Below, piece after piece: positions 304-57,781 of a stretch of DNA of 64,000 bases. This DNA comes from Escherichia coli phage Wa28. The translations under genes and the position numbers were made by a program. The notes beneath the pieces were generated by a model that was given only the letters and a program-made list of their open reading frames with translations, had not been told where the DNA came from and did no database searches. Each line of letters opens with the position of its first letter. The first letter of the stretch is position 1. The stretch lies in sequence record LC788710.1. One strand, 5' to 3'.

Positions 304-332
304 ATTATATAAAAATTTCAGCGGAAAGTCAA
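304..332 (-). promoter_or_regulatory. sigma70-type early promoter (-35 TTGACT, 17 bp spacer, -10 TATAAT)
   Basis: Reverse complement of 304-332 gives TTGACT-N17-TATAAT followed by conserved ATTTATATAAATTG start region. Confidence 0.6.
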
Positions 333-345
333 CTACTTTTTTATA

Positions 346-762
346 TTAGTGTGCTTGATGTGGGAATCTCTTCCTAACTAAGTACATAGTTATTGGATAT
401 ATTGAATACATAAGTATAGGGGAGAAAAGGGTGAAATAAGCCGTGACTCCCCCAGCTAACATTAGTGGTATCAATGCTAGAGTAAGGGCCATAAGAATCA
501 TACCGAATGAGACAGCCAGGGCTACTGTGATGCAGTTCTCTAACTCCATCCAAAGCCAACAATATTTCGTATTCCTCTGGCAGTTGCATTTGCAAACGCC
601 GAATGTGCCCATAATTATATACTCTAGCCCATGAACGACTTTCTTTAATGTATCATTTTGGGTAACTAGTGCGACAACAGTGAGAATTATCATTAAGATG
701 AAAATTACTAGGCTTATTTTCCATATTCCTAGTAATATCATGGTGAATAGTTCTGCAAACAT
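346..762 (-). CDS. small integral membrane protein (several predicted TM helices), downstream of endolysin
   Basis: ORF track 138 aa; hydrophobic stretches ILLGIWKISLVIFILMIILTVVALV and others. Confidence 0.5.
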   Translation of the reverse strand: MFAELFTMILLGIWKISLVIFILMIILTVVALVTQNDTLKKVVHGLEYIIMGTFGVCKCNCQRNTKYCWLWMELENCITVALAVSFGMILMALTLALIPLMLAGGVTAYFTLFSPILMYSIYPITMYLVRKRFPHQAH

Positions 763-837
763 GGCTTTCTCCTATCATTAAGTTTTTAAAGCCCCCTTTG
801 CTTTAAAAGGCGGGAATTACCCCGCCTTGATTTATTA

Positions 838-1251
838 TCAGACTAATTCTACGTGACCACCGTCGTAAGTACCACGATCGATCTCATCATGATAATCACC
901 AGAACTATTCCAGTCGGCACCAAAACGAAGTTTGACACCAAGTTCCTTACCGGCTTGTTCAAAAGCCTTCTTAACAGCCCAAAATGCTTCCAGATCTTTC
1001 CAATCAATCTTTCCATTAATATATGGTGCAAAATCGATAGCGTCTCCAGTTACATGCTTACTCTTGCTAGGGTCTTTCAAAAATGAAGTACCATTAGCAA
1101 TGTTTTGGGCACTTTGTGCTACTGTACGAATACCCTGTACGATTGTGAAATCATATGGAGATAATTCTAAAGCCCTACGAGCTACCTTTTGTAGCTCGGG
1201 CTTAACAGTTGCTAATTGTTTTTCGCTATTTTTACCAAATTTAAAACTCAT
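838..1251 (-). CDS. lys: endolysin, L-alanyl-D-glutamate peptidase (M15 family zinc peptidase)
   Basis: 137 aa; motifs HVTGDAIDF and DGGHVEL typical of M15 peptidases; size and position match T5 endolysin. Confidence 0.75.
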   Translation of the reverse strand: MSFKFGKNSEKQLATVKPELQKVARRALELSPYDFTIVQGIRTVAQSAQNIANGTSFLKDPSKSKHVTGDAIDFAPYINGKIDWKDLEAFWAVKKAFEQAGKELGVKLRFGADWNSSGDYHDEIDRGTYDGGHVELV

Positions 1252-1904
1252 ATAGATCTACCTAATGATCTCCGTTGTGGGGAACAGAGCTTTGCTAAGT
1301 ACTCATTAAATTGTTCCGAATCAGCTGTATCTACGGGTTTATCCTTCCATGCAATACCTATGTATCCAGCATAGATATTATTTAGGTTGAAATATGGACA
1401 AGTGTAGACGTAATTAAAAGTAATGTTCTTAAATGCTGGTATATTTGACCCTGTATATTTATTTACTTTTACACTTAAATCCGCAGCGTAGTTAAAGCCT
1501 TCCAGGTGACGTCTATAAAGTTCAGACGTCTTATTTACTGCTTTATCGGCCAAGTCAGCCCTATCCAATTGCGCATTGCTTTCCCATGCAATAATGTTTG
1601 AATAATCATTTATAGCATCTGGTTTATACTTTACTACAAAAACGGCATCCGCACCAGTCTGGGAGAAAAGAACCATACTCTTTTCTCGTGCTACATTAGG
1701 AAAGTTATCTATCCTTTGGGTTTGAACATCCTGTAAAACCGAAGACGTGGAGAAAGTCTTTAAAAATGACATCACCTCGCTAGTGTTACTTACAAACAAG
1801 AAAATAATGACAGCAACTAAGATAGTTAGCAGACGTTTTAGTAGTGAAGCTGGATCTTTCGCTTCTTGTAGCAGTATCGTTAATAGTTGTATAAACTTTT
1901 CCAC
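1248..1904 (-). CDS. holin-like membrane protein immediately upstream of endolysin
   Basis: 218 aa, N-terminal TM helix (LLTILVAVIIFLFVSN), 4-nt overlap with endolysin start. Confidence 0.5.
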   Translation of the reverse strand: MEKFIQLLTILLQEAKDPASLLKRLLTILVAVIIFLFVSNTSEVMSFLKTFSTSSVLQDVQTQRIDNFPNVAREKSMVLFSQTGADAVFVVKYKPDAINDYSNIIAWESNAQLDRADLADKAVNKTSELYRRHLEGFNYAADLSVKVNKYTGSNIPAFKNITFNYVYTCPYFNLNNIYAGYIGIAWKDKPVDTADSEQFNEYLAKLCSPQRRSLGRSI

Positions 1905-4813: not shown

Positions 4814-4958
4814 AAATTATCCTTTTGCCTCAATCTATAAACATATTATACAATACTTGTGGCATCTGAGCAACTGAAATTTTATTACAAAAATAGCCCA
4901 GTCGCAAAATTGCAGGCTGGGCTTTGTCATTATTATTCTTGCTAGGAGGTGATTATCA

Positions 4959-6937: not shown

Positions 6938-6967
6938 TTCAAAGCCCTCTCATCAATTTATATAAAT

Positions 6968-6996
6968 ATTATATCAAAAGGAGAGGGTTTTAGCAA
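6968..6996 (-). promoter_or_regulatory. early promoter (-35 TTGCTA, 17 bp, -10 TATAAT)
   Basis: Reverse complement gives TTGCTA-N17-TATAAT then ATTTATATAAATTGATGAGAGG and ATG. Confidence 0.7.
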
Positions 6997-7013
6997 ATGA
7001 ATTATTTACGAAA

Positions 7014-9285: not shown

Positions 9286-9315
9286 TTGGTTTCCCTCTCA
9301 TTAATTTATGTAAAT

Positions 9316-9344
9316 ATTATAACAAGAAATAAGAGAGAAGGCAA
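9316..9344 (-). promoter_or_regulatory. early promoter (-35 TTGCCT, -10 TATAAT)
   Basis: Conserved promoter module, reverse complement. Confidence 0.6.
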
Positions 9345-9359
9345 ATGAATTTTTAAATT

Positions 9360-11938: not shown

Positions 11939-12200
11939 AAAATCTTTAAGTTTACTAAGGCTATTAGCTCGGTGTGCGTATTACCCTCAGACATTAGCCA
12001 GTAGAGGATAACCGCTCTTCACAAACCCGATACACTATTCAGTTGCCGCTGAATCTAGTGGACTAATCTAGAACTTATTGCAAAGTATCCCCCGCCATTA
12101 AGGGTCTACTTGCAATTGTGCTTTTTGGCAGCCAGTCCTAGGTCGAGCTAATACCTTAGTGAACTTTGATGAGGATTTCTCCTCATCAATTTATATAAAT

Positions 12201-12229
12201 ATTATAACAAGAAATTAAGCATCAAGCAA
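12201..12229 (-). promoter_or_regulatory. early promoter (-35 TTGCTT, -10 TATAAT) driving downstream noncoding leader and tRNAs
   Basis: Conserved module; overlaps stop of upstream ORF. Confidence 0.6.
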
Positions 12230-12581
12230 GTACATTTTTAGCGATTTCTTGTATTTCCTTAACGTCACTAACGAAAAGGTAATCAGAGCTTCCAGAGTGC
12301 ATACTCTGCATAACCACACCATCCTCTGGTGCATCTTCTTTCAAAGTAATACCTAACCAGAACTCGGCAAAACTAGGTGTTACCTCACCTTGACTTGCCT
12401 TGAATACATCGGCTTCTGTGATCTCCTGACCAGTAGAGAGTCCCATGTACGGTACGTTCAGATCAATATCTTTGTAAAACTCAGCTAGATCTTGTTCGAA
12501 GTCCCAACCTTTAGAGATAGCGAACTCCATTGTTACATGACCGAAATAGCCTTGAACCTTGCTTGATAATTGCATTTGCAA
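12222..12581 (-). CDS. hypothetical protein
   Basis: ORF track 119 aa. Confidence 0.5.
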   Translation of the reverse strand: MQMQLSSKVQGYFGHVTMEFAISKGWDFEQDLAEFYKDIDLNVPYMGLSTGQEITEADVFKASQGEVTPSFAEFWLGITLKEDAPEDGVVMQSMHSGSSDYLFVSDVKEIQEIAKNVLA

Positions 12582-13557: not shown

Positions 13558-13589
13558 AATATTCTTTGTTAACTCACTTTATAAAATAT

Positions 13590-13618
13590 ATTATACAGAG
13601 AATTAAGCTAAATAGCAA
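13590..13618 (-). promoter_or_regulatory. early promoter (-35 TTGCTA, -10 TATAAT) upstream of tRNA-Pro and the CAT tRNA
   Basis: Conserved module. Confidence 0.6.
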
Positions 13619-13872
13619 CTACATTTTTTAATAAATTTACTTATTGCGTAGGCCACCTGGAGGGTTCAAGCCCCACGGCTGACAAAGAAGTTTGCGAGAC
13701 TTCTCTTAAACGCCAGAATAGACCCGCCGATCTATCGGAACCTACTCAATAAGTAAACTTTCGTTTACCTACACCTACCTGGTCGGGAGGATTTTCAGCG
13801 ACTAGAACCGGCCGGAAACTCATCGCCTTGTTTATCTAGGAGTCCGTTCTCTAGGAAGCAGAAACCTAAATT

Positions 13873-15525: not shown

Positions 15526-15764
15526 TTAACACGCTCCGGTAAATCTTCGAGTTTATATTGAGTAGCCACATTAGCAGCATCTAGTAACAAACCCATATGT
15601 TTAAGAATCCTAGTGATAGCCTCGCCTTCTGCTTCTTCTACAAAAGTGCGTAGTTGAATGAAGTCAATACCCCCATCCATACCAGAGAAAATGTTTAGTA
15701 AGCGAAGCATTACCAGCTTACGTTCTTTCAATTCTTGTTCTGTCATGTTGCTTCTCCAGTTCAA
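15522..15764 (-). CDS. hypothetical protein
   Basis: ORF track 80 aa; promoter module upstream. Confidence 0.45.
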   Translation of the reverse strand: MNWRSNMTEQELKERKLVMLRLLNIFSGMDGGIDFIQLRTFVEEAEGEAITRILKHMGLLLDAANVATQYKLEDLPERVK

Positions 15765-15775
15765 TTTATGTAATA

Positions 15776-15804
15776 ATTATACAGAACTTTAAGCGGTTAA
15801 GCAA
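15776..15804 (-). promoter_or_regulatory. early promoter (-35 TTGCTT, -10 TATAAT)
   Basis: Conserved module. Confidence 0.6.
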
Positions 15805-16075
15805 CTACATTTTTTAAGAATTTGATGCCTTTCTTTTTCTTCTTATATTTCCACGTTAACGGGTTCTGTCGATTATGAACGCTTGAGATCTTTGTCTCGT
15901 CAAAGTTCTTCAAAACCATGTAATCACAGGCCAACTGTTCTAGTGGGATGTGATCTCCATCAAAAGCATAAACATAAGGCTGTTGACTAGCACGATAATG
16001 ATAGACTTTGTTAATTCTGCGTTTCAGTGACTTATCCGCACAGTAAATAAAGAAGTTTTCAGGATGCATCAGCAT
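15797..16075 (-). CDS. hypothetical protein
   Basis: ORF track 92 aa. Confidence 0.4.
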   Translation of the reverse strand: MLMHPENFFIYCADKSLKRRINKVYHYRASQQPYVYAFDGDHIPLEQLACDYMVLKNFDETKISSVHNRQNPLTWKYKKKKKGIKFLKNVVA

Positions 16076-16917: not shown

Positions 16918-17045
16918 TATTTAGAAGTATTCAAATACTTGTTTAAACACTTTTAAATATGTTTTCCAAATTAGATATCTATTATATCAAGTTTTGAAGG
17001 ACTGAGCAAGTCAAATTTTAAAGAACTTGCTCAGTGCTACATCAG

Positions 17046-17321: not shown

Positions 17322-17351
17322 TCGTTAACTCCTTCATCAATTTATATAACT

Positions 17352-17381
17352 ATTATAACAGAAATCTTAAGTAAAAAGCAA
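17352..17381 (-). promoter_or_regulatory. early promoter (-35 TTGCTT, -10 TATAAT)
   Basis: Conserved module. Confidence 0.6.
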
Positions 17382-17411
17382 GTACATTTTTAAAATTTCT
17401 GCTTGGAGGAG

Positions 17412-18480: not shown

Positions 18481-18574
18481 TGGAGGAAGATGCCAGACTC
18501 GAACTGGCACACCGTGTCTCCACAGCTACTGGCTGTTTAGCAAACAGCTCCCTTACCTTTAGGGTTAATCTTCC
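18481..18574 (-). tRNA. tRNA-Ser (anticodon GCT), class II, manual call
   Basis: Anticodon stem-loop GCTGT-TTGCTAA-ACAGC, long variable arm, CCA end. Confidence 0.55.
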
Positions 18575-18588
18575 GAATTTATGAATAT

Positions 18589-18617
18589 ATTATACAGAAA
18601 ATTTCGGCATTAAGCAA
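18589..18617 (-). promoter_or_regulatory. early promoter immediately upstream of tRNA-Ser(GCT)
   Basis: Conserved module (-35 TTGCTT, -10 TATAAT). Confidence 0.6.
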
Positions 18618-18625
18618 GTGAAATT

Positions 18626-18922
18626 TTACTGAACACTGCACTGATACACTTGTTTGATACGTGTCACTGACTTCTTAGTTGGATTGATAGAAGAACCTTG
18701 CCACCAACGTGACTCTGAGCTAAGAACAGCGCCAGGAACAGCCTGCTCTTTTGGCAGAACAATATCAAAACACTGTTCACCCATATTATCTTTAATGTGT
18801 GACCAAATATCCAAAGTAAATCGTTCTAACTTATTACAAACCTGAACTTGACAAAGTTCCTGTTGCGGAGCAGCAAATACAGAAGTAGATACTAGAGCCA
18901 ATGCAAGTACAATGCGTTTCAT
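18626..18922 (-). CDS. secreted Cys-containing protein (signal peptide)
   Basis: 98 aa; MKRIVLALALVSTSVFAAP. Confidence 0.5.
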   Translation of the reverse strand: MKRIVLALALVSTSVFAAPQQELCQVQVCNKLERFTLDIWSHIKDNMGEQCFDIVLPKEQAVPGAVLSSESRWWQGSSINPTKKSVTRIKQVYQCSVQ

Positions 18923-18952
18923 GTTTGATTCCTCTCTCGAATTTATAAATAT

Positions 18953-18981
18953 ATTATACAGAAATTTTCTATATTAAGCAA
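18953..18981 (-). promoter_or_regulatory. early promoter
   Basis: Conserved module. Confidence 0.6.
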
Positions 18982-19028
18982 GTGAAAATTTCTGTATAAT
19001 AGCCCTCGCTTAGAGGGCTATAACTACT

Positions 19029-19721: not shown

Positions 19722-20781
19722 CGTTAAAGTGATGAATCAGCCAGTCTACTGCGTTTACTGCTTCGTCCATACGAACTTTGTAGTCCGGAGAGTCGATGTA
19801 AACAGTACGCCCTTCAGGGAACTGATTTGGAAATTCTTTCTTCATCTGCTCGAACAGTTCAGAAGTAATTGAACGATCGGAGTTAATACGTAAACCATCA
19901 TCTACCCACTTGACAGTAGGCGCTAGAACAATTACTAAATCGTAATGTTCTTCTTTTGCAATTGCTGTAACCACAGGGTTCTTACTATGTTCATAAAGTC
20001 TGTGGTAGAACTCAGTAATAAAAGCATTTGTATCCACAAACATGATCTTATTTGCAGTACGTTCTGCTTCAAACTCTAGCTCTTTGTGTCTGAACGCAAT
20101 TTTACTATAGTCTTCGCTGGTAAGCAGATTTTCGTTACCAACTAGATCAACTTCACAATACGTTCGGCCATATTCTTCTACCCACGAAGTGTTGTATAGC
20201 TTCGCAAGGTATTTTGTTAAAGTAGTCTTTCCTGAGCTTTCAGTCCCAATGATTACAACCTTACGCACGTAATCTTTACGAGCTACGCTAGGAAGAAACT
20301 CCCAATACTTCATAAGATCATTACGAATCATTGTAGCTGAGATTGGAACACGAGTCCGATCAGAATCTACAATATAATGACCAAACTTCGGCAGATATTT
20401 CTTATATTCTGCATCATAGTCTAGTTCGCTAGAGAAAATGGTGATCTCAGGCAAATGTCCGTAATTTTCATTAAGGATTCTAGCATATTCCGGCCAACCA
20501 TTCGGATATTCAGGAATATCATCTTCAATAATGTACTCTACCGAAATGTGCTCAATATCCGCGTAAGTTTGTTCTAACCAACGAAGTCGATTCTTTAACT
20601 GTAATACTTCCTGATCACGAGTGTTCTGCTTATCCAGCCAACGATTATCATGACTAACTACAACAATAACTCGTTCACACATAGTTGCTGCTGTGTTTAT
20701 TAGGTTAATATGACCACGCGTTAATGGCGCGAACTTACCAATTACTAGACCAGTCTTAATCATATTTGATTCCTCTCTCAA
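19708..20781 (-). CDS. NadR-like bifunctional NMN adenylyltransferase / ribosylnicotinamide kinase
   Basis: 357 aa; nucleotidyltransferase motif GKFAPLTRGHINLI; Walker A IIGTESSGKTTL in C-terminal kinase-like domain. Confidence 0.7.
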   Translation of the reverse strand: MREESNMIKTGLVIGKFAPLTRGHINLINTAATMCERVIVVVSHDNRWLDKQNTRDQEVLQLKNRLRWLEQTYADIEHISVEYIIEDDIPEYPNGWPEYARILNENYGHLPEITIFSSELDYDAEYKKYLPKFGHYIVDSDRTRVPISATMIRNDLMKYWEFLPSVARKDYVRKVVIIGTESSGKTTLTKYLAKLYNTSWVEEYGRTYCEVDLVGNENLLTSEDYSKIAFRHKELEFEAERTANKIMFVDTNAFITEFYHRLYEHSKNPVVTAIAKEEHYDLVIVLAPTVKWVDDGLRINSDRSITSELFEQMKKEFPNQFPEGRTVYIDSPDYKVRMDEAVNAVDWLIHHFNVGEF

Positions 20782-20793
20782 ATTTATAAATAT

Positions 20794-20822
20794 ATTATAC
20801 AGAGAATTTAGCGTTCAAGCAA
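20794..20822 (-). promoter_or_regulatory. early promoter upstream of NadR-like gene
   Basis: Conserved module. Confidence 0.6.
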
Positions 20823-20969
20823 TCGAATTTTTAAACTTTTTAGTGGAAAAATCTCAAGGCATTTAGTGGTAGCACGTTGTTGCTACAATAATAGTATATG
20901 ATTCTAAAGAATTAAAGAATTAAATACTAAAGACCTTAGTTGAATAACTTATGGGCTTTTCTTTTGCCT

Positions 20970-22299: not shown

Positions 22300-23130
22300 A
22301 TTTTTAAGAACTCTTATAAAAGCTCTTAAAGATACCAGACGGTAGGTAGGGTCAGCCCCCTCAGATTAAGCTCTGCAGCCCTTCCGTCAGACAATATCTT
22401 CCAGTTTAAGTCAGGGTGACTTTGTGGTTATGTTCTCCGTATGTGAAGAACTCGGTTAGGCTTAGGTCATGACTCCCAGCCTACTGCTGCCGCTCAACAG
22501 GAATTATCGCGAATTACCTGTACTATTGGGCACCATTAGTGACATCTCTCATGTCAGCGTTTCCCACTCTCATATTCACGCGGTCTGTTAGAATCGCACC
22601 TCCGATTTTCGATGCGAAGCTGGATGCCTAGTCTCAGGTTAAACGGGGCACACACTAGGCAGTGATCCCGAGTTCCGAGTTTGGTTGAGGCCGTCAGGTT
22701 TCCTCGTGGTTTAGCTGTTTCGATTCTAACCTAATACTGATCAGGTGGCGTACCTCCTGAACCGTCATAGTATGTACTCCAGCAGCGAATGCTTATCCGG
22801 TATAAGCCCGAGTTATCTGATTCTTTCCGACCGCAGGATTCGAACCTGCATCTTCCACCAGTTACGGTTTGATATTACCGTTTATACTAGGACGGCAGTG
22901 TTATCACATAAGTCAGTTCGACACCCCACTAACATAAACTAGAGAAGAGTTTACGAGATTTCGGGACAGCTCCCGAGTTTTCCGCAGATTTTCAGTTCCC
23001 TATCAATAGCAATAAGCGTTAGCTCGTAGCCTCTCTCAGAGTACTTACTAGTCTCCAACTCACCGACTCTATTCAGTGGAATAGCTATCCTAGTAGGAAT
23101 CACTAAACTCACTCAGCGTAATCGGCTCGC
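22300..23130 (-). ncRNA. ~0.8 kb promoter-driven region without ORFs; candidate structured noncoding RNA(s) with a tRNA-like T-arm element
   Basis: No minus-strand ORF of 60 aa or more; early promoter at 23152-23180 points into it; GCAGGTTCGAATCCTGC element near 22826-22850; locally higher GC. Confidence 0.35.
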
Positions 23131-23151
23131 TGTTCTCTAATTTATGAATCT

Positions 23152-23180
23152 ATTATACAGAATTTTGAGGCGTTTAGCAA
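23152..23180 (-). promoter_or_regulatory. early promoter directed into the noncoding region
   Basis: Conserved module (-35 TTGCTA, 17 bp, -10 TATAAT). Confidence 0.6.
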
Positions 23181-23188
23181 ATCAATTT

Positions 23189-23632
23189 TTAATTAAATTC
23201 GCCAGCAACCTGAGCAGCAATGCCACCGTCGTAACGACCAGGAAACTCTTCCTTAATCGCTTTCATCAGCATACCTTTTGTAATCCCAGGGTTCAACTTA
23301 ACTAATTCTGCAAAGTATTTGCGAATCTCAGAATCAGATAACTGAGGCGGCAGATACTGTTGTAGCCATTTGTTCAGTATATACTCATACTGAGCAGACT
23401 GCAAGCTATAATTATCAAGGTCTTGACCGTGAAGTTTAGCTTTCGTCTGATTAATGCTTTTCAGTTGAGCTTTTAGATAAGATACAAACTGTTCAGAAGT
23501 AATGAAGTCTTTATCAACACGCTGAAGATCTCCGATTATGGTCTGGTAGCTTTTAGCTACTTCTTTATCAGAACCATCAACCTTAGATTCCTGCAAAGCC
23601 CTACGCAAAACATCTAGAATATTCTCTTCCAT
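23189..23632 (-). CDS. GatB/YqeY-domain protein
   Basis: 147 aa; overall similarity to YqeY family, C-terminal GGIAAQVAGEF. Confidence 0.5.
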   Translation of the reverse strand: MEENILDVLRRALQESKVDGSDKEVAKSYQTIIGDLQRVDKDFITSEQFVSYLKAQLKSINQTKAKLHGQDLDNYSLQSAQYEYILNKWLQQYLPPQLSDSEIRKYFAELVKLNPGITKGMLMKAIKEEFPGRYDGGIAAQVAGEFN

Positions 23633-23802: not shown

Positions 23803-23833
23803 ATTTCGCTTCCTCTCATTAATTTATGAAAGT

Positions 23834-23862
23834 ATTATACAGAAATTTAAGGCTTTAAGCAA
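23834..23862 (-). promoter_or_regulatory. early promoter
   Basis: Conserved module. Confidence 0.6.
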
Positions 23863-23870
23863 TCGAATTT

Positions 23871-24338
23871 TTAAGTTTTCTTAACCACAGGCTTGTAGAA
23901 CGTATGGCCTTGAATCTTCGTTGTTTTCTTAAACTTCTTTGTCCAGTACGGTTTATCTTTACCACTATGGAAGTATAACGCTCCATGTGTTGGATCTTGT
24001 GGTAAATCAACGTAGTATATCACTCTAGCTAAATTCTTAGCAACTTGCCAAGCCTCATCGGTTTTATCAACTTTTGGTCTCTTGGCCACCCAAGAGAACT
24101 GGTTAGACTGATATACTACTTTACAGTAAGAATCAGGAAAAGTACCAGAGTTAACACGGTTTTTAGTAACCTGTGCAACTGCGATCATTCCTTTAGTGCC
24201 CTCACCTCGTGCTTCGAAGTAGATATTTTTTGCAATGCAATCAATCTGCTTTGAGTCGTAGGTCGCATGACTATTGAAGCTATAGGTTAGGGCAGCTATT
24301 AAAAGCAAAGCTGCCTTCATTTTATTTACTCCGGCCAA
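23871..24338 (-). CDS. secreted SleB-like cell wall hydrolase domain protein
   Basis: 155 aa; signal peptide; NIYFEARGEGTKGMIAVAQVTKNRV...FPDSYCKVVYQSNQFSW. Confidence 0.6.
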   Translation of the reverse strand: MAGVNKMKAALLLIAALTYSFNSHATYDSKQIDCIAKNIYFEARGEGTKGMIAVAQVTKNRVNSGTFPDSYCKVVYQSNQFSWVAKRPKVDKTDEAWQVAKNLARVIYYVDLPQDPTHGALYFHSGKDKPYWTKKFKKTTKIQGHTFYKPVVKKT

Positions 24339-24643: not shown

Positions 24644-24673
24644 AATAGCCTCGTCTCATCAATTTAAAAATAT

Positions 24674-24702
24674 ATTATACAGAAAACTAAACTAATTAGC
24701 AA
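24674..24702 (-). promoter_or_regulatory. early promoter
   Basis: Conserved module. Confidence 0.6.
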
Positions 24703-25082
24703 ATACATTTTTAAATTGAGAGACTAGTAAACCGATAAACAGCCTAGAGGCGCCACAGGCCATATCTTATGAGCCATGTACCTTTGATCTAGGGTTTGAA
24801 TCATCAACGAATACTTTGCATCTTTTAGCTTTAGAAGGTTAGAAGTTTGAGTGCTTTTAACTTTTCAGCTTTCATACTTGAGCGTTGATCTTTGAAGTTG
24901 TGTTGGTACTACCAACGACCGTTTTTACAGTTCAGCTTAAGAGGCTGGTGTAATAAACATAATCTCCAATAGATTATACTTTATAGTATGGTCAGCGGTC
25001 TTATTTAACCTCGTATTTCAACCGCTGCTGCGAGGTAAGATGCTTGGGCTTTCGTCTACCGATTTACTAGTCTTTTAAATTA

Positions 25083-25957: not shown

Positions 25958-25997
25958 AATTGTTTTCCTTTTGTTGTTCTCTCAAATTTATGAATAT

Positions 25998-26026
25998 ATT
26001 ATACAGAATTTTGGAGCTGAAAGCAA
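25998..26026 (-). promoter_or_regulatory. early promoter
   Basis: Conserved module. Confidence 0.6.
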
Positions 26027-26027
26027 A

Positions 26028-27815: not shown

Positions 27816-27853
27816 TATTTGTTTTCCTTTTTGTTGATCAATTTATGAGATAT

Positions 27854-27882
27854 ATTATACTAAATTTTGAAGCGTTTAGCAA
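27854..27882 (-). promoter_or_regulatory. early promoter
   Basis: Conserved module. Confidence 0.6.
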
Positions 27883-27898
27883 ATGAATTTTTTAAAAA

Positions 27899-28177: not shown

Positions 28178-28204
28178 AAAGCCCTCCTCACTTTCAATAC
28201 GAAT

Positions 28205-28233
28205 ATTATACTAAATTCGAGGGCTTTAAGCAA
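28205..28233 (-). promoter_or_regulatory. early promoter
   Basis: Conserved module. Confidence 0.6.
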
Positions 28234-28253
28234 GTGAATTTTTAATTTATTTA

Positions 28254-29639: not shown

Positions 29640-29678
29640 ATGAAATTTAAATATAATAGCCCCGAAGGGCTATTTGAA

Positions 29679-33084: not shown

Positions 33085-33108
33085 AGTATATCTCCTTAAT
33101 ATAGAGAT

Positions 33109-33137
33109 ATTATAGCAAATCTGGTAGCGATTAGCAA
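33109..33137 (-). promoter_or_regulatory. early promoter
   Basis: Conserved module (-35 TTGCTA, -10 TATAAT). Confidence 0.6.
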
Positions 33138-33183
33138 GTAAAATTTCAAAGAAAAAGGAGACCCGAAGATCTCCTTGTTTTTA

Positions 33184-36643: not shown

Positions 36644-36707
36644 TCCTATAGTGTACTTCGCTAACAGAGGATCAACAAAAAGATCTTGTTTATCAACTTA
36701 CAAATAT

Positions 36708-36736
36708 ATTATACCAATATATGCGGGAGAAAGCAA
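36708..36736 (-). promoter_or_regulatory. early promoter for phoH (minus-strand side of divergent region)
   Basis: Conserved module. Confidence 0.6.
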
Positions 36737-36928
36737 CTACAATTTTAAATAAGCCTATGATATTGCATTTAAATAAAAAATTTGCTTGCTTTTATTGGGA
36801 GATGTATGGTACTAGATAATCATTTTATATCGCGTACACGGGTGCGTGATTATACTATTTTTAGTAGAGGTTGGCAAATAAAATTTTTTGACTCAGATCA
36901 ATTTACAGAATGTTATAGTAAAATATTG

Positions 36929-38867: not shown

Positions 38868-38899
38868 AGCCAGGTTGCTAGTCGACCTGGCTTTTATTT
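38868..38899 (+). terminator. rho-independent terminator
   Basis: GCCAGGT..ACCTGGC hairpin then TTTTATTTT. Confidence 0.6.
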
Positions 38900-38902
38900 T
38901 AT

Positions 38903-38931
38903 TTGCTTTCGAGCTAAAACTTATGTATAAT
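38903..38931 (+). promoter_or_regulatory. early promoter (TTGCTT-17bp-TATAAT)
   Basis: Followed by conserved ATTTATAAATTTGAGAGGAG and ATG. Confidence 0.65.
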
Positions 38932-38959
38932 TGATTTATAAATTTGAGAGGAGAAAGCT

Positions 38960-42170: not shown

Positions 42171-42214
42171 CTCTGTGCTCAAAGACACTGATAGCACCTT
42201 CGGAAAAATTTTAC

Positions 42215-42243
42215 TTGCAGGATGGTCAAAATCTTGATATAAT
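42215..42243 (+). promoter_or_regulatory. promoter with extended -10 (TTGCAG-17bp-TGATATAAT)
   Basis: Followed by conserved ATTTATATTGAATTGAGAG start region. Confidence 0.55.
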
Positions 42244-42739
42244 ATTTATATTGAATTGAGAGACATTAGTAAAAATTGATTTTGCTAATTTTTCTTGTTT
42301 ACAATCCGCAATACGGAACAGTTAGGCTGCCCCATTAAGGGTTGTTTTAACTATTACTAGTGTTTATACTGCATTAGTTAATTATCAATTAAGTGATCTG
42401 CGTACCCTGAATTCGGAAAGGTAAATCCAAACCGTGCATATTTAGCTCGTTATATAGGCAGAGCTTTATATGGGGGTGCGAACGAAAAGAGCAGCGAATG
42501 GTGACACGTCCAGTAGCCACCTACCAATAGGATAGTGAGGGCAATCAGAATCGGCTTAGCGGCCAATGACCTAGGTTCTGATCTGGATAAGAGTTAAGAG
42601 AGCGCAGCACTGAGGTATGATAACTTATTCATACTGCTTGATGATGATTAATGTTTGTGTAAATGGTAGTAATAGTTGTTCTATTCTTTTGAATAGTCCT
42701 AAAGAAAGATATTCGAATAACCAACATAGGAGTATTGTT

Positions 42740-45529: not shown

Positions 45530-45746
45530 AAAGTGGGAAACAAGGAAGTTTCCAGTAAAAGAACGTAAAACTTCTGTTTACGATACTGCGGAGAAACTAT
45601 GTAGGGTTGTACCACCTCGTCTCGCTGGCATCCCTAATGTCTCCATATGGTTACTTAAACAACGGAAGACTCGTGTGTCTCTTCGCATTGGCTTTGAGTT
45701 AGATAAAGTCTATGCTGAACTTGCTTCTTTGCTCAAAGAATCATAA
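45513..45746 (+). CDS. hypothetical small basic protein
   Basis: ATG at 45513 with GGGAG SD. Confidence 0.4.
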   Translation: MTVKNKKWETRKFPVKERKTSVYDTAEKLCRVVPPRLAGIPNVSIWLLKQRKTRVSLRIGFELDKVYAELASLLKES

Positions 45747-45755
45747 AAATTTTAT

Positions 45756-45784
45756 TTGCTTTCAGGAAAAATTTTCTGTATAAT
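45756..45784 (+). promoter_or_regulatory. T5 PN25-type strong early promoter
   Basis: TCATAAAAAATTTATTTGCTTTCAGGAAAATTTTTCTGTATAATAGATTCATAAATTTGAGAGAGGAG matches the PN25 sequence as I recall it. Confidence 0.85.
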
Positions 45785-45815
45785 AGATTCATAAATTTGA
45801 GAGAGGAGTTTAAAT

Positions 45816-46746: not shown

Positions 46747-46766
46747 CAGTTACTGAAAAATTTCAG

Positions 46767-46795
46767 TTGCTTAATCCTGTAATTCTTGATATAAT
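46767..46795 (+). promoter_or_regulatory. early promoter (TTGCTT-17bp-TATAAT)
   Basis: Sequence. Confidence 0.6.
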
Positions 46796-46853
46796 ATTCT
46801 CATAGTTTGAAAGAACTATTCTGTTTAATTCTTAATTAAGGAAATCGAAAAAT

Positions 46854-47970: not shown

Positions 47971-47983
47971 TTTATAAATGTAC

Positions 47984-48012
47984 TTGCTTTCGACTCAGTT
48001 TTGTTATATAAT
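47984..48012 (+). promoter_or_regulatory. early promoter (TTGCTT-17bp-TATAAT)
   Basis: Followed by ATTTATATAAATTGATGAGAG and ATG 48044. Confidence 0.65.
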
Positions 48013-48043
48013 ATTTATATAAATTGATGAGAGATATAAATAA

Positions 48044-49015: not shown

Positions 49016-49158
49016 TTCGTAACCCTTTGCTACCCGTTTACCATGTCGGAATTATAAAGTGGTTATTGACATTTTCGCCGCTTAGGTATATACTATTATC
49101 ATTCAGTTGAGGGATAGAAAGTTATGGCGAGGGTAAGCAAAGTTAGTTAAAATTGTAG

Positions 49159-49188
49159 TTGCTAAATGCTTAAATACTTGCTATAATA
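49159..49188 (+). promoter_or_regulatory. early promoter between the two ligase ORFs
   Basis: TTGCTA ... TATAAT then ATTTATATAAATTGATAAGGAAG. Confidence 0.6.
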
Positions 49189-49214
49189 TTTATATAAATT
49201 GATAAGGAAGAAAT

Positions 49215-50757: not shown

Positions 50758-50773
50758 TCTGGTAAATTAAACC

Positions 50774-52312: not shown

Positions 52313-53199
52313 GTAGAATAACAGAACTACTTGATCTGAAAGGCATTGAATACAAAGACACAGGTGGGGACATCCTCATCTGTTGTCTCAATCCAGATCA
52401 TGATGATAAACACCCAAGTTTGCGTATTGATCCTGAATCAGGTATTATGCATTGCTTGAGCTGTGGCTTCGGTAGAGGAATACCGAGCATTTACCATTAT
52501 TTTAATGAGACTCAGTACAGACAGTCACCAAGATTGTCACAAGTACGTAAAAAGATTTCAGAGATTAGGAATGGATCTACGAATCTTGCAATTCCTGAAT
52601 CTGCTTACCTTTTCGAAGGTGATTTCCGAGGTATCAGTTCTAAGACCTTGAAGAAATATTTTGCTTTCCAACATCAAGCAGATTGGGAAGGCAGAATTGT
52701 ATTCCCAATAACAGATGCTGTTGGACGCAATATCCTATTCTTGGGACGTTCTATAAACAGTTCTGCCCCTCCTAAATACTTAGTAAAACCAAAACAAGTT
52801 TCACCACCGATTTTCCCTGTACGATATAATACACCAGTCCTTGTTCTAGTTGAAGGTATCTTTGATATGTTGAATCTAGAAGATAATGGTGTGGATTATG
52901 CTTCTTGCTGCTTTGGTACGCATCAGTTCACCTCTGATAATATTGCAGATAAGTTCAGTCCTTACATTATTGCTGGAGTAAGAGTAGTTGTTATCTTACT
53001 AGATAACGATGCTTCTGGTAATAAAGCTGCACAAGCATTGGCGAAGCTAATTCGTACAAAAACGCGTTTAACACCTGTAGTTGGTAACTTCCTTCTTCCA
53101 GAAGGTAAAGACCCAGGTGATTTAAATAAAGAAGAGATCGATATGTTGGCTCAACGTATTGAAATTTTAGTTGCCGAATCGCTAAAAGATTTGGTATAA
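52309..53199 (+). CDS. DNA primase (zinc-binding plus TOPRIM-like)
   Basis: 296 aa; N-terminal CLNPDHDDKHPS...HCLSCG zinc motif. Confidence 0.7.
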   Translation: MSRITELLDLKGIEYKDTGGDILICCLNPDHDDKHPSLRIDPESGIMHCLSCGFGRGIPSIYHYFNETQYRQSPRLSQVRKKISEIRNGSTNLAIPESAYLFEGDFRGISSKTLKKYFAFQHQADWEGRIVFPITDAVGRNILFLGRSINSSAPPKYLVKPKQVSPPIFPVRYNTPVLVLVEGIFDMLNLEDNGVDYASCCFGTHQFTSDNIADKFSPYIIAGVRVVVILLDNDASGNKAAQALAKLIRTKTRLTPVVGNFLLPEGKDPGDLNKEEIDMLAQRIEILVAESLKDLV

Positions 53200-53200
53200 T
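53171..53200 (+). promoter_or_regulatory. promoter with extended -10 (TGGTATAAT) overlapping primase stop
   Basis: TTGCCG ... TGGTATAAT; followed by a 9-bp hairpin and SD AAAGGAGA. Confidence 0.5.
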
Positions 53201-53261
53201 ATATTGGTAAGTTAGAGAAGAAACACTGAAGTTATACTTACTTACCAAAAGGAGACTAAAT

Positions 53262-55829: not shown

Positions 55830-56319
55830 TTTCAAATTGCCCGTATATGCTTTACGGGCGTTTGTATCAATTGAGCAGGAAGGTGATTATTCCGTAACTA
55901 CAACAAGATATAATAAATATGTGCTAGATAACAGGGAGTTGCCTGGCACATTCTCTCAACGTAGGTTAGCCTTATTTGAGAAGCGGAAAGAATTACCTTA
56001 TAAGCTCTATCCTATTCGTGGTAGAATATCAATGTTGTCCCAATTAGTTGGGTCAAAGCGTAGCCAGTTCATAGATTCTGATGGAAATCTCATTAACTGG
56101 AAGAAAACTACGTTCTATGATGTTATCACGTCTAAAGTTCTGCATTCTGCAAGAATTTATAATGGAAAGTATCAATGCTATGTGGCTAAAGTCCCGTATC
56201 CATTCGTGCTATCCTATGTTCCAGCTTATATAAGCTATATTCTGGTAAATAATAGCCCTGTTATTTACCAAGTCCATCAAGAGGAGCCTGAAATTCCTAG
56301 ACTTAGAATAAAATTATGA
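55822..56319 (+). CDS. hypothetical protein
   Basis: ORF track 165 aa. Confidence 0.5.
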   Translation: MLDFKLPVYALRAFVSIEQEGDYSVTTTRYNKYVLDNRELPGTFSQRRLALFEKRKELPYKLYPIRGRISMLSQLVGSKRSQFIDSDGNLINWKKTTFYDVITSKVLHSARIYNGKYQCYVAKVPYPFVLSYVPAYISYILVNNSPVIYQVHQEEPEIPRLRIKL

Positions 56320-57668
56320 AGGTCATTATATCTAATAAAGCCTATTTCAAGCCCGATGATGAACTCTGGGATTATTGTAGTAAGCAAACCACTTATCACA
56401 TAGAGACAATGACTAGTAAATACCCTATTATGTATAAGAATAGTGGTGTTGTTGCTAAAGAGATTAAGTGGATTCCCATTACGCGTCTGGATTTGCTAGA
56501 TGCTAAGGGAGTAAAATACGAATTAGTTGATAAACGCACGTTAGCTCCTGTAGAAATACCAGAACCTCAGTTCAAGCTACGTGAAGAAGATCAGCTTCCT
56601 ATATATGAAGAGTGCGATGATACCTGTATTATTAATGGTAAGCCTGGATTTGGTAAAACTATCCTAGCTCTAGCTCTTGCATATAAGTTTGGCCAGAAAA
56701 CTCTGGTAATCTGTACCAACACATCCATTCGTGAAATGTGGGCTGCAGAAGTTCGTAAATGGTTTGGATTCGAGCCGGGTATTATAGGTTCTGGGAAGTA
56801 TAATATTGATCCACCAATAGTGGTCAGTAATATACAAACAGTGAACAAACATGCGAATAATCTTTCTAAGGTGTTCGGTACTGTTATAGTTGATGAAGTA
56901 CACCACTGTGTAGCTACAACTTTCACTAATTTCCTAGAGATCTCGTGTGCTCGCTACAAGATTGGTTTATCAGGTACGTTAAAGCGTAAAGACGGCCTAC
57001 AAGTTATGTTCAAAGATTTCTTTGGATATAAGATCTTTAGTCCGCCTGTTAATAACACTGTTCCACCCACAATCCATAGGTACTCCGTGCCTGTTGAGTT
57101 ATCAGGAAACCAGAACGTACCGTGGGCATTACGTGCTAACGATGTGTATAATCATCCTGAATATCGAGAGACTATTATAAATCTAGCTCATTTATATGTG
57201 TCCATGGGGCATAAGGTTCTCTTTGTAAGTGATAGAACAGAACTAATTCAAACAATACTAGAAGCTCTCGCACAACGTGGTGTTACAACCTATGAGATTA
57301 TAGGTGCAACTCCTTTGGATGATCGATTGAGAATCCAGAAAGATGTAGCGGAGGGCGGACCTTGTGTACTTGCAGCAGCTCAGAGTATCTTCTCAGAAGG
57401 TATTTCTCTTAACGAGCTATCTTGTTTAATAATGGGAAGTCTCATTAATAATGAATCTCTCATAGAACAGCTAGCAGGTCGCGTTCAACGTATTGTTGAC
57501 GGAAAACTAGATCCGATTGTTGTAGATTTAATTATGAAAGGAGGTACTGGTTTAAGACAGGCTTCTGGACGTATGGCCGTGTATCGCAATAATGCATGGA
57601 AAACTATTACTATGACTCCGGAGAAAGCAGTACAATTAGCTAAAATTGCATTTGGCAACTGCTCATAA
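56316..57668 (+). CDS. SF2 DEAD/DEAH-box helicase
   Basis: 450 aa; Walker A GKPGFGKT and Walker B VIVDEVHH. Confidence 0.75.
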   Translation: MKVIISNKAYFKPDDELWDYCSKQTTYHIETMTSKYPIMYKNSGVVAKEIKWIPITRLDLLDAKGVKYELVDKRTLAPVEIPEPQFKLREEDQLPIYEECDDTCIINGKPGFGKTILALALAYKFGQKTLVICTNTSIREMWAAEVRKWFGFEPGIIGSGKYNIDPPIVVSNIQTVNKHANNLSKVFGTVIVDEVHHCVATTFTNFLEISCARYKIGLSGTLKRKDGLQVMFKDFFGYKIFSPPVNNTVPPTIHRYSVPVELSGNQNVPWALRANDVYNHPEYRETIINLAHLYVSMGHKVLFVSDRTELIQTILEALAQRGVTTYEIIGATPLDDRLRIQKDVAEGGPCVLAAAQSIFSEGISLNELSCLIMGSLINNESLIEQLAGRVQRIVDGKLDPIVVDLIMKGGTGLRQASGRMAVYRNNAWKTITMTPEKAVQLAKIAFGNCS

Positions 57669-57680
57669 TTATTGTATAAT
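57652..57680 (+). promoter_or_regulatory. early promoter (first of tandem pair)
   Basis: TTGGCA-17bp-TATAAT then ATACACATAAATTTGAGAGAG. Confidence 0.55.
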
Positions 57681-57751
57681 ATACACATAAATTTGAGAGA
57701 GAAAGTTTCGGATTGATAAGAAAGTCCGAAGCAGAAAAATAAAAATTGTAC

Positions 57752-57781
57752 TTGTCAAATCCTCCCGATTTAATGTATAAT
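57752..57781 (+). promoter_or_regulatory. early promoter (second of tandem pair)
   Basis: TTGTCA-18bp-TATAAT then ATATACATAAATTGATGAGAG and ATG 57809. Confidence 0.6.

Follow-up and report, generated by a model that had tools for sequence, protein, structure and literature searches.

The 64,000-nucleotide stretch of Escherichia coli phage Wa28 DNA analysed here (record LC788710.1, in the following termed the window) contains a single type of extended sigma-70 promoter module, present in 30 full copies. Judged by their sequence, the modules are very probably sigma-70 promoters of the early class in a T5-like phage, strong and read by the host RNA polymerase. The transcribed block of the module is composed of two joined functions, an ATAAATT element and a Shine-Dalgarno sequence.

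Genomic setting

The window shares 98.3% identity with E. coli phage Shin27 and resembles hundreds of further T5-like phages, its DNA polymerase shows 99.9% identity to the counterpart in Salmonella phage BSP22A, and 29 tRNA genes are present. It corresponds to the early region in the genome of a member of the T5-like Demerecviridae. Large parts of it reach no more than 75-93% identity when aligned to T5, and Wa28 is a species distinct from T5.

Definition and occurrence of the module

Modules were located across the whole window with a weight matrix iterated from the seed TTGCT-N18-TATAAT. In order, each comprises AAAA(A/T)TT at -45, TTGCT(T/A), the spacer, TATAAT, the discriminator ATATT(T/C) and ATAAATTGATGAGAGG from +1 onwards. 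Twenty-one modules lie on the minus strand (positions of the first -10 T, 309 to 36713) and nine on the plus strand (38926 to 57776), the outermost -10 hexamers matching exactly the limits 304 and 57781 of the initial annotation. Its recurring promoter module on both strands is thus confirmed by the weight matrix, while its count of more than 30 copies was slightly generous, the window holding 30 full modules and about five additional sigma-70 promoters without the downstream block.

Each position of TATAAT is kept in 29-30 of the 30 modules, TTGC of the -35 hexamer in 28-30 per position, AAAA at -45 to -42 in 27-28 and the A at -6 in 27. The conservation past +1 that had been described is borne out, with T+2 to T+7 found in 24-27 of the 30 (T+2 27, A+3 25, A+4 25, A+5 24, T+6 24, T+7 27). 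To call the copies near-identical was an overstatement, since pairwise identity over -45 to +17 has a mean of only 60% (range 37-84%). The spacer has the length given earlier (17 bp in 27 modules, 18 bp in three), but its A/T-richness is weak (66% A+T versus 60% in the window), and a G/C-richer patch is located at about -26 to -24. Overall the A+T content of the modules is 75%, in agreement with the value reportedly given for T5 early promoters by Gentz and Bujard in 1985.

Full-matrix scores of the 30 modules range from 33 to 74 bits, whereas the best score in 20 composition-matched (Markov-1) random windows was 4.3 bits, so that none of these controls contained anything comparable. Scored on its own, the 23-nt downstream block surpasses the highest random score at 16 sites, and apart from one weak match of 15.8 bits it always accompanies a promoter core. 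The sequence TATAATATTTATA occurs eight times with at most one mismatch (0.28 expected). All 30 modules have the orientation of their downstream genes, the 21 minus-strand copies lying within the zone of minus-strand genes and tRNAs (up to 36.7 kb) and the nine plus-strand copies within that of plus-strand genes.

Promoter modules of the window. Coordinates span -45 to +17; scores are from the weight matrix; percentages are BLAST identities to the T5 record AY543070; features given by coordinates are T5 promoter features.
Module	Strand	Downstream feature and remarks	Bits	T5 counterpart
281..342	-	-10 hexamer 309-304; -35 TTGACT; start codon +28	50.8	Positional partner 19368-19442, 64/90 identical
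4822..4883	-	ATG +26, ORF 4115-4813	42.1	24443-24517, 85.6%
6945..7006	-	ATG +25, ORF 6656-6937	67.4	26722-26796, 87.5%
9293..9354	-	ATG +25, ORF 8992-9285, then tRNA-Ile, tRNA-Met	66.2	P11, 93.3%
12178..12239	-	-10 at 12206; noncoding stretch, tRNA-Ala downstream; transcript hairpin +6..+29 (12166-12189)	65.2	P13b, 95.6%
13567..13628	-	-10 at 13595; tRNA-Pro (~+27), tRNA-Met directly downstream	52.7	P13a, 94.5%
15753..15814	-	ATG +24	64.3	P14b, 90%
16958..17019	-	-10 at 16986; tRNA-Tyr start ~+59	61.6	P14a, 91.3%
17329..17390	-	18-bp spacer; -10 hexamer 17357-17352; ATG +25, ORF 17046-17321	28.6-32.7 (two registers)	P15c, 91.5%
18566..18627	-	-10 at 18594; adjoins tRNA-Ser 18481-18574, start +9	67.9	Position of P15b
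18930..18991	-	ATG +25, ORF 18626-18922	67.2	Nearest sequence P15a, 36 nt only
20771..20832	-	ATG +25, into NadR-like and PnuC genes (Pfam); best score of window	74.2	P15a, 95.2%
23129..23190	-	-10 at 23157; ~850 nt noncoding (like T5 rnaX), tRNA-Arg	65.7	P16-17, 89.7%
23811..23872	-	ATG +26	69.6	P-D/E33, 92.8%
24651..24712	-	ATG +25, ORF 24326-24643	69.3	43067-43141, 94%
25975..26036	-	ATG +35	71.6	44393-44467, 96.6%
27831..27892	-	ATG +33, ORF 27291-27815	58.1	P-H207, 93.3%
28182..28243	-	ATG +22, ORF 27899-28177	46.6	46337-46411, 95.5%
29588..29649	-	ATG +25, proteasome-type subunit gene 29002-29580 (Pfam); terminator-like hairpin immediately upstream	47.0	No BLAST match in T5 (sole such module)
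33086..33147	-	GTG +19, ORF 32566-33084; terminator-like hairpin immediately upstream	37.0	50061-50135, 98.2%
36685..36746	-	Last minus-strand module; ~58-nt leader, ORF 35882-36643	59.6	53638-53712, 95.6%
38893..38954	+	First plus-strand module; ATG +23; upstream A/T block overlapped by terminator T-run	51.2	55708-55782, 94.2%
42205..42266	+	-10 at 42238; 367-nt untranslated leader, gene 42617-45529 (T5 counterpart annotated as replication origin-binding protein)	58.2	58999-59073, 97.4%
45746..45807	+	ATG +26, D2 gene	70.2	P-N25, 96.7% over 90 nt
46757..46818	+	~52-nt leader, D3 gene	58.6	P-N26, 95.2%
47974..48035	+	ATG +26, DNA ligase subunit A gene; terminator-like hairpin immediately upstream	62.2	65284-65358, 96.7%
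49149..49210	+	ATG +25, DNA ligase subunit B gene; promoter of different type in tandem upstream (49089)	73.8	P-K28a, 100% over 90 nt
53162..53223	+	18-bp spacer; ~55-nt leader, DNA polymerase gene	39.6	70987-71061, 97.7%
57642..57703	+	Leads tandem pair	63.4	P31A, 94.3%
57743..57804	+	18-bp spacer; ATG +22, ORF 57809-58171	41.4	Position of P31B; positional partner 75568-75642, 62/90 identical

Correspondence to T5 promoters

In a BLAST comparison with the T5 record, the best match of 29 of the 30 modules falls within an annotated promoter feature, and the promoter identity assigned to the modules is therefore fully supported. The matched features include P-N25, P-N26, P-K28a, P-H207, P-D/E33, P11, P13a/b, P14a/b, P15a/c, P16-17 and P31A, many being named, experimentally cloned promoters (e.g. 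P-N25, P-N26, P-K28a, P-H207). The "T5 promoter" used in expression vectors derives from P-N25. The T5 record further annotates rnaX downstream of P16-17; many of its promoter features are unnamed and possibly predictions themselves.

T5-type early promoters have been known since the 1980s, and their consensus, including the A/T blocks at -43 and +1, is already published. Start-site position and early timing are taken from the literature on T5, where the +1 of N25 is the A seven bases past TATAAT and early transcripts from P15A and Ppol have been seen by primer extension (Klimuk et al. 2020, PMC7472727). We infer that every copy is active in Wa28; some may nevertheless be inactive in vivo, as primer extension in T5 gave products for only 11 of the 19 promoters tested (PMC7472727).

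Two functions within the transcribed block

In 20 of the 30 modules a start codon follows at +19 to +35 (median +25), and 17 of these 20 contain a Shine-Dalgarno core measuring 4 nt or more within the conserved block (GAGG or GAGAGG at about +10 to +16); of the ten modules that precede a tRNA, noncoding RNA or an extended leader, one does (Fisher p=0.0001). The module hence commonly supplies the ribosome-binding site, as the initial annotation had stated, and its placement of modules directly upstream of tRNAs and of the noncoding region likewise holds (tRNA-Pro, 13595; tRNA-Ser, 18594; tRNA-Tyr, 16986; noncoding stretches, 12206 and 23157; a 367-nt leader follows at 42238). These figures might suggest that the whole block is a shared translation leader, i.e. 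an A/U-rich enhancer joined to a Shine-Dalgarno sequence and devoid of any role in transcription. Such an explanation is improbable, and for +1 to +7 largely refuted, because ATAAATT is almost equally kept in the ten modules of the second group (5.4 of 7 positions versus 6.2 in coding modules), e.g. at 18594, where tRNA-Ser begins at +9. Its retention even before tRNAs indicates a role in transcription. Moreover, in purified, ribosome-free transcription the segment +3 to +20 of P-N25 alters the RNA yield: the native sequence supports fast promoter escape, and its replacement leads to about 10-fold less productive RNA (Hsu and Han 2025, PMC12464699), a loss originally described by Kammerer et al. 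1986 (cited in PMC12464699). This effect of the initial sequence is one of constitutive strength and not of regulation.

Conservation and origin of the copies

Between orthologous promoters of Wa28 and T5, the -10 hexamer is 99%, the -35 hexamer 96% and the segment +1 to +8 95% identical, compared to 85-87% for spacer and flanks; the functional promoter positions are thus shown to be under purifying selection. Applied elsewhere, the same matrix detects 31 modules in the T5 genome, 20 in that of Pectobacterium phage DU_PP_V and 15 in that of Vibrio phage PG07; shuffled sequence yielded none. Both TATAAT and ATAAATT are retained in the modules of all three phages, and the non-consensus -35 hexamer (TTGCTW, not TTGACA) and the single discriminator are retained across Escherichia, Salmonella, Pectobacterium and Vibrio phages.

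The many dispersed copies on both strands could also be thought of as a mobile or recombination-spread element that resembles a promoter, such as a miniature transposon or a T4-type promoter-stem-loop cassette. A terminator-like hairpin directly precedes five of the 30 modules, and some alignment blocks to T5 stop at modules (e.g. 12251, 15723, 16957, 18603, 33090). However, the hairpin is missing from the other 25, all copies are co-oriented with the downstream gene, and modules are not enriched at synteny breaks, since a module is found within 60 nt of only 8 of the 58 break edges, whereas about one in four gene boundaries has one. An origin by mobile copying, which the initial annotation had named as the alternative to promoters, was rejected by the flanks: these, including the spacer, are only 38-43% identical between different modules of the window, as opposed to the 85-87% between orthologous sites. 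Each copy is therefore old and locus-specific with only the functional positions shared, and a mobile element is exceedingly unlikely.

Proposed mechanism and possible regulation

As early promoters, the modules would be read by host RNA polymerase with no need for a phage polymerase, each forming a stack of elements that favour strong transcription. The A-tract at -45 to -39 resembles a proximal UP-element subsite and may be contacted by the C-terminal domain of the alpha subunit. It would act together with a core of TTGCT(T/A), a 17-bp spacer, the perfect -10 hexamer TATAAT and the A/T-rich discriminator ATATT(T/C). The transcript would start with an A/T-rich and then purine-rich sequence, A(+1)TAAATTGATGAGAGG, of which the ATAAATT block, judging from P-N25, may allow fast escape of the very tightly bound polymerase. 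GAGAGG (about +10 to +16) would serve as Shine-Dalgarno sequence for a gene starting at about +25; with this arrangement in two thirds of the modules, promoter, leader of about 24 nt and ribosome-binding site would form a compact expression unit.

Besides acting as strong promoters, the modules might contain a class-specific target (about -6 to +8) for phage proteins that shut off the early class at the early-to-late transition, the candidates being RNA polymerase modified by gpT5.026 or the DNA-binding protein D5. This possibility, which we regard as rather doubtful, supplements the explanation by promoter strength instead of replacing it and makes concrete the shared mechanism acting on the initial transcribed sequence that the initial annotation had suggested. 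That a shared switch acts on the discriminator and the initial bases of the transcript is a plausible hypothesis, already proposed earlier. It is consistent with the retention of the block -6 to +7 at tRNA, noncoding RNA and mRNA promoters alike, and in Pectobacterium and Vibrio phages too. Furthermore, a second promoter type with a TTGACA-type -35 hexamer or other discriminators and without ATAAATT (before the nrdD gene, before the holin and endolysin genes, and P-K28b) is conserved as well: T5 has it at the same loci, and DU_PP_V does in part.

In T5, gpT5.026 lowers the binding of RNA polymerase to N25 probes covering -12 to +2 about 8-fold, and in a mutant phage early RNA is increased and late RNA reduced (Klimuk et al. 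2020, PMC7472727). The discriminator is the main difference between early and late T5 promoters; ATATT is common to all known early ones, and the RNA polymerase-binding gpT5.026 was suggested to act there (PMC7472727). Its effect on transcription in vitro is, on the other hand, two-fold or less (PMC7472727). The D5 homologue (49990-50757) resembles four tandem helix-turn-helix bundles and has a weak Pfam match to sigma-70 region 4, but this match is a generic helix-turn-helix signal and the fold search gave no significant hit (best E 0.004, TM 0.2). An A/T-rich discriminator and initial sequence would be equally expected if selection favoured stability of the open complex and rapid escape. Selection for strength alone is, however, not an obvious account of the kept TTGCTW and discriminator, nor of a coexisting second promoter type devoid of these features, which leaves room for an extra class-specific regulatory role. 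The mechanism initially suggested is thus supported only in part: the block splits into ATAAATT and a Shine-Dalgarno sequence, the P-N25 effect concerns constitutive strength (PMC12464699), and regulation via gpT5.026 is a proposal (PMC7472727).

Comparison with known promoter systems

T4-type early promoters and promoter-stem-loop cassettes were reportedly described by Arbiol, Comeau and Krisch in 2010. Like the modules, T4-type early promoters follow a phage-wide extended sigma-70 consensus that recurs in dozens of copies upstream of small early genes; we know of no extension of the T4 consensus into the transcript. Contrary to the T4-type cassettes, Wa28 shows no enrichment at synteny breaks, and an adjacent hairpin is confined to the five modules mentioned above. 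Host promoters that contain an UP element, such as rrnB P1, share the A-tract at about -45 to -40 upstream of a near-consensus core and the very high strength. Promoters of the rrn P1 type have a G/C-rich discriminator and form short-lived, regulatable open complexes, whereas the T5 type combines an A/T-rich discriminator with very stable complexes.

The Wa28 counterpart of the P-N25 escape system (Kammerer et al. 1986; Hsu and co-workers; PMC12464699, PMC5961368) is module 45746-45807, which from +1 to +17 presents the same A/T-rich, then purine-rich sequence that supports fast escape in P-N25. Those experiments employed a single promoter in vitro and on plasmids, from which we infer the behaviour of the 30 Wa28 modules. 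For the T5-like phage AKFV33, 32 promoters were reported with TTGCTw, TATAATA, a spacer of 17-18 bp, AAAAATT at -43 and TAAATT at +1 (Niu et al. 2012, PMC3326045), which matches the Wa28 consensus and comes close to its count; that study neither split the transcribed block into an escape and a Shine-Dalgarno part nor compared distant genera, both of which were done here. The T5 early promoters themselves share element order and genome positions with the Wa28 modules. Individual promoters are 85-100% identical, a few modules (-10 at 18958 and 29616) have no one-to-one partner in T5, and the two sets do not differ in kind.

Promoter modules in the window

An initial scan for a TTG-type -35 hexamer, a spacer of 16-18 bp and a TATAAT-like -10 hexamer returned a conspicuous subset of sites with common flanks. 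A weight matrix seeded with 23 perfect sites and iterated to convergence retrieved 30 modules, 21 on the minus strand (309 to 36713) and nine on the plus strand (38926 to 57776), each denoted by the window position of the first T of its -10 hexamer. All 30 are co-oriented with the downstream gene or tRNA. Their consensus reads AAAA(A/T)TT-N-A-N-TTGCT(T/A)-N17-TATAAT-ATATT(T/C)-ATAAATTGATGAGAGG and is numbered after the published N25 probe (TATAATAGATTCAT = -12 to +2; PMC7472727), with +1 being the A seven bases past the -10 hexamer.

Within the -35/-10 core, each position of TTGC is found in 28-30 and each position of TATAAT in 29-30 of the 30 modules, the two hexamers lying 17 bp apart in 27 modules and 18 bp apart in three. 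An A-rich block (AAAAATT) is located near -43, with A in 27-28 modules at each of the positions -45 to -42 and T at -40 in 28. The discriminator between the -10 hexamer and +1 conforms to ATATT(T/C) (A-6 in 27, T-5 in 23 and T-3 in 26 modules), and the transcript start is formed by T+2 (27), A+3 (25), A+4 (25), A+5 (24), T+6 (24) and T+7 (27), followed by GAGAG. Core and spacer, the A block, ATATT, TAAATT with its purine run, orthology to T5 and the co-oriented early location together characterize the modules as T5-type early promoters. The A-tract at -45 to -39 resembles the proximal UP-element subsite and may, by this analogy, function as an UP element.

The initial annotation had described more than 30 near-identical copies from 304 to 57781, and these ends indeed correspond to the first and last -10 hexamers of the modules. 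The full modules number 30, in addition to about five sigma-70 promoters that are devoid of the downstream block. Near-identity is true of the core blocks only, the mean pairwise identity over -45 to +17 being 60% (range 37-84%), and the spacer, described as A/T-rich, is just mildly so (66%).

Full-matrix scores of the real modules amount to 33-74 bits, compared to a best score of 4.3 bits in 20 composition-matched random windows. A generic sigma-70 consensus scan between 12 and 30 kb found 44 sites versus 46.5 expected and is uninformative; signal and noise are told apart by the extended module only. Likewise, AAATTGAGAGAG alone with two mismatches is not enriched (12 seen versus 11 expected); scoring of the downstream block must keep its position relative to the -10 hexamer fixed. 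When the window was scored with this block alone, 16 sites exceeded the random maximum and the block was never found away from a promoter core.

Five modules (309, 6973, 12206, 48007 and 49182) harbor a perfect 12-bp palindrome, ATTTATATAAAT, at the start site, centered between -1 and +1, which explains weak reverse-strand matrix matches at two of them. As the remaining modules are non-palindromic at this position, a reading as operator is weak.

The early region and its other loci

The window is colinear with the early region of T5 (AY543070, about 19.2 to 81.4 kb), the identity being 68-93%. Up to about 36.7 kb the genes lie on the minus strand, beyond about 36.9 kb on the plus strand, and the turn of the cumulative GC skew coincides with this switch. 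A search with the first 20 kb gave matches in 703 phage records; E. coli phage Shin27 ranks first (98.3% identity, 95% query coverage), ahead of numerous T5-like phages of Salmonella and Escherichia. The DNA polymerase and its counterpart in Salmonella phage BSP22A are 99.9% identical.

Promoters of the second type and other features of the window
Feature	Position	Strand	Remarks
Promoter 36952	36929-36957	+	before nrdD; perfect TTGACA-17-TATAAT
Promoter 36854	36849-36877	-	no ATATT/ATAAATT
Promoter 35558	35553-35581	-	no ATATT/ATAAATT
Promoter 1934	1929-1957	-	before holin and endolysin genes
Promoter 49089	49066-49094	+	P-K28b counterpart
29 tRNA genes	8.8-22.3 kb	-	
Second tRNA-Ala	11860-11938		ARAGORN; absent from Rfam list
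tRNA-Tyr	16829-16916		ARAGORN; absent from Rfam list
tRNA-like element	22825-22896	-	borderline, Rfam 29.3 bits; absent from ARAGORN
Hairpin in module 12206 transcript	12166-12189	-	+6 to +29
NadR-like gene (cytidylyltransferase + AAA_28) and PnuC nicotinamide mononucleotide transporter gene	19029-20781	-	downstream of module 20799, upstream of modules 18958 and 18594; stretch unrelated in T5 (alignment gap 2272 nt in window vs 2351 nt in T5)
Noncoding, about 850 nt	22293-23145	-	module 23157 to tRNA-Arg; matches T5 'rnaX' stable RNA
Proteasome-type subunit	29002-29580	-	accessory early gene; Pfam Proteasome, 38 bits
Sir2-family protein	39617-40468	+	accessory early gene
Untranslated stretch, 367 nt	42250-42616	+	module 42238 to gene annotated in T5 as replication origin-binding protein; two further promoter-like sites (-10 hexamers 42300 and 42365)
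Small protein	47648-47956	+	accessory early gene; PC4 transcriptional-coactivator-like domain
D5 homologue	49990-50757	+	annotated in T5 as a DNA-binding protein; required for late transcription and for early shut-off
DNA polymerase	53262-55829		

The untranslated stretch behind module 42238 may serve as a regulatory leader or as an origin. Its fold is just marginally better than that of shuffled sequences (z = -1.9), and a comparable gap of about 470-640 nt precedes the origin-binding gene in T5, Pectobacterium phage DU_PP_V and Vibrio phage PG07. The presence of NAD-salvage genes in the phage and of A as first base of all transcripts gave rise to the idea of an NAD cap; the sequence from -3 to +4 (TTTATAA), however, presumably lies outside the published preference.

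Orthology to T5 and origin of the modules

In this region, the T5 record lists about 40 'promoter' features, many of them under historical names. For 29 of the 30 modules the best BLAST match lies within such a feature, which bears out the promoter interpretation of the initial annotation. The named counterparts comprise P-K28a (100% identity), P-N25 (96.7%), P13b (95.6%), P-N26 and P15a (95.2% each), P13a (94.5%), P31A (94.3%), P-H207 and P11 (93.3% each), P-D/E33 (92.8%), P15c (91.5%), P14a (91.3%), P14b (90%) and P16-17 (89.7%), while further modules match unnamed T5 promoter features.

Ungapped alignment (at least 65 of 90 positions identical) yielded 22 clear one-to-one positional orthologues, for which identities between the window phage and T5 were compared with those between different modules of the window. 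The two values are close for the -10 hexamer (99% versus 94%), but diverge for the -35 hexamer (96% versus 80%), for +1 to +8 (95% versus 64%), for the spacer (85% versus 43%) and for the flanks (85-87% versus 32-38%). High identity among orthologues and low identity among modules in spacer and flanks imply a locus-specific background that is inherited vertically. Only the functional positions are common to the modules, evolving more slowly than their surroundings, which demonstrates purifying selection on the first transcribed bases.

Dispersal by a mobile element, the alternative considered in the initial annotation, is rejected on account of this locus-specific background: in a miniature transposon the nonfunctional positions would be common to the copies as well. 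Neither terminal inverted repeats nor target-site duplications are evident within the aligned modules of the matrix set.

A second candidate was a cassette of the T4 type, in which promoter and stem-loop are shuffled together. Cassettes of this type would each include a stem-loop as an integral part and be enriched where genes have been gained, lost or replaced between related genomes; the window modules show neither trait. Of the 58 edges of alignment breaks between the window and T5, eight are no more than 60 nt away from a module, and about one quarter of the gene boundaries carry one, so that the 58 edges are not enriched near modules beyond the gene-boundary expectation. A terminator-like hairpin is found directly upstream of five modules out of 30. 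With break edges unenriched and hairpins confined to these five, a role in cassette shuffling, as proposed for T4-type phages, is not supported.

The T-run hairpins upstream of modules 29616, 33114, 38926, 42238 and 48007 end 45-82 nt before +1. At four of the five sites the end lies at -45 to -52, where the T-run enters the upstream A/T block and a compact terminator-promoter junction results.

Two functions of the transcribed block

In 20 of the 30 modules a start codon is positioned at +19 to +35 (median +25; 17 of the 20 at +22 to +28). Of these 20 coding modules, 17 contain a Shine-Dalgarno core (4 nt or longer) within the conserved block, compared to one of the ten modules with a tRNA, noncoding sequence or a long leader (Fisher p=0.0001). 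That the module often supplies the ribosome-binding site, as initially annotated, is hereby substantiated, as is its occurrence in front of tRNAs and noncoding sequence: tRNA-Ser begins at +9 of module 18594, module 13595 precedes tRNA-Pro and module 23157 the rnaX-like stretch. Conservation of ATAAATT (+1 to +7) does not differ significantly between the two groups (6.2/7 coding versus 5.4/7 noncoding). Since the Shine-Dalgarno core is limited almost to coding modules and ATAAATT is found in both, the transcribed block joins two functions. Positions +1 to +7 are the transcription-linked part and GAGG is the ribosome-binding part, a split visible from the sequence alone.

A mechanism for the transcription-linked part is available from published work on P-N25. 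This promoter forms extremely stable open complexes, with escape as the rate-limiting step, and fast escape is supported by its native initial transcribed sequence, which is rich in A/T and purines (PMC12464699; PMC5961368). Replacement of +3 to +20 lowered productive RNA about 10-fold (PMC12464699, citing Kammerer et al. 1986).

The transcript of module 12206 would begin with a perfect 10-bp hairpin, TTGATGAGGA-GAAA-TCCTCATCAA, partly made from the conserved GATGAGGAG block. Its GATGAGGAGAAAT part is present in the T5 P13b feature, too, which ends at about +20. An Rfam search over the window recovered tRNAs only, so that none of the transcribed leaders matches a known RNA family.

Conservation across Demerecviridae and a second promoter type

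Limited to -45 to +17 and with a cut-off of 20 bits, the matrix finds 30 matches in this window, 31 in T5 (10-85 kb), 20 in Pectobacterium phage DU_PP_V (83 kb, Mccorquodalevirinae) and 15 in Vibrio phage PG07 (49 kb), the DNA polymerase of which is about 55% identical. Ten shuffles of the Vibrio locus gave no match at this cut-off. All four genomes share TATAAT, ATAAATT and a discriminator of the form A..T.T; the -35 hexamer of the Vibrio phage has drifted to T(T/A)GC(T/C). Demerecviridae that infect Pectobacterium and Vibrio thus retain the entire module, together with its initial transcribed bases and its non-consensus -35 hexamer.

Five good sigma-70 promoters of the window lack the ATATT and ATAAATT blocks. 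Both blocks are also absent from the T5 counterparts of all five and from the DU_PP_V counterparts of the nrdD and P-K28b promoters, hence two promoter types stably coexist in the early region. The breadth of the module and the second promoter type bear on the question of how T5 switches temporal classes with the host sigma-70 polymerase alone.

A possible shared regulatory mechanism

From the uniformity of the modules, the initial annotation had proposed a shared regulatory mechanism acting on the initial transcribed sequence. This is reasonable but unproven. The same discriminator, the same initial transcribed sequence and a -35 hexamer that departs from the consensus are retained family-wide, promoters of the second type coexist in the same region, and gpT5.026 has been suggested to act through the discriminator (PMC7472727). 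However, selection for very strong constitutive promoters would give the same features.

In one specific, rather improbable form of shared regulation, the invariant stretch from -6 to +8 would not just be optimal for strength but act as a checkpoint that is read after polymerase binding. Here, ATATT and TAAATT (+2 to +7) would hold sigma-70 and cause a common pause or slow step early in every early transcript, at which gpT5.026, D5 or other phage proteins might act to shut off the whole early class. TAAATT fits the -10-like pattern TAnnnT and, by inspection of the sequences, is present in 25 of the 30 modules. If the checkpoint existed, the conservation of -6 to +8 in the Pectobacterium and Vibrio relatives would mark a family-wide switch.

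The D5 homologue shows a weak Sigma70_r4_2 Pfam match (29.1 bits, residues 204-230) and several other helix-turn-helix matches. Its AlphaFold model (pLDDT 70) consists of four tandem three-helix bundles, for which Foldseek found no significant structural match in the PDB. That D5 might recognize the -35 hexamer in the manner of sigma region 4 is a lead and not evidence.

Comparison with known T5 promoters

The T5 promoter family is textbook knowledge and the standard model for promoter-escape studies; the 'T5 promoter' of the pQE vectors derives from P-N25. Promoters of this type from T5 were reportedly characterised by Gentz and Bujard (1985). As the family and its consensus are already published for T5-like phages, the modules as such have little discovery value. 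ATATT is present in the discriminator of every T5 early promoter identified so far (Klimuk et al. 2020, PMC7472727); initiation at the A seven bases past the -10 hexamer, early kinetics and the use of host sigma-70 are known from publications on T5 only (N25 numbering; primer extension on P15A and Ppol; PMC7472727). In another T5-like phage, Niu et al. 2012 described 32 promoters in which TTGCTw and TATAATA are separated by 17-18 bp and accompanied by AAAAATT at -43 and by TAAATT at +1 (PMC3326045). The initial observation is confirmed, and the modules are known T5-type early promoters, ordinary for this phage family.
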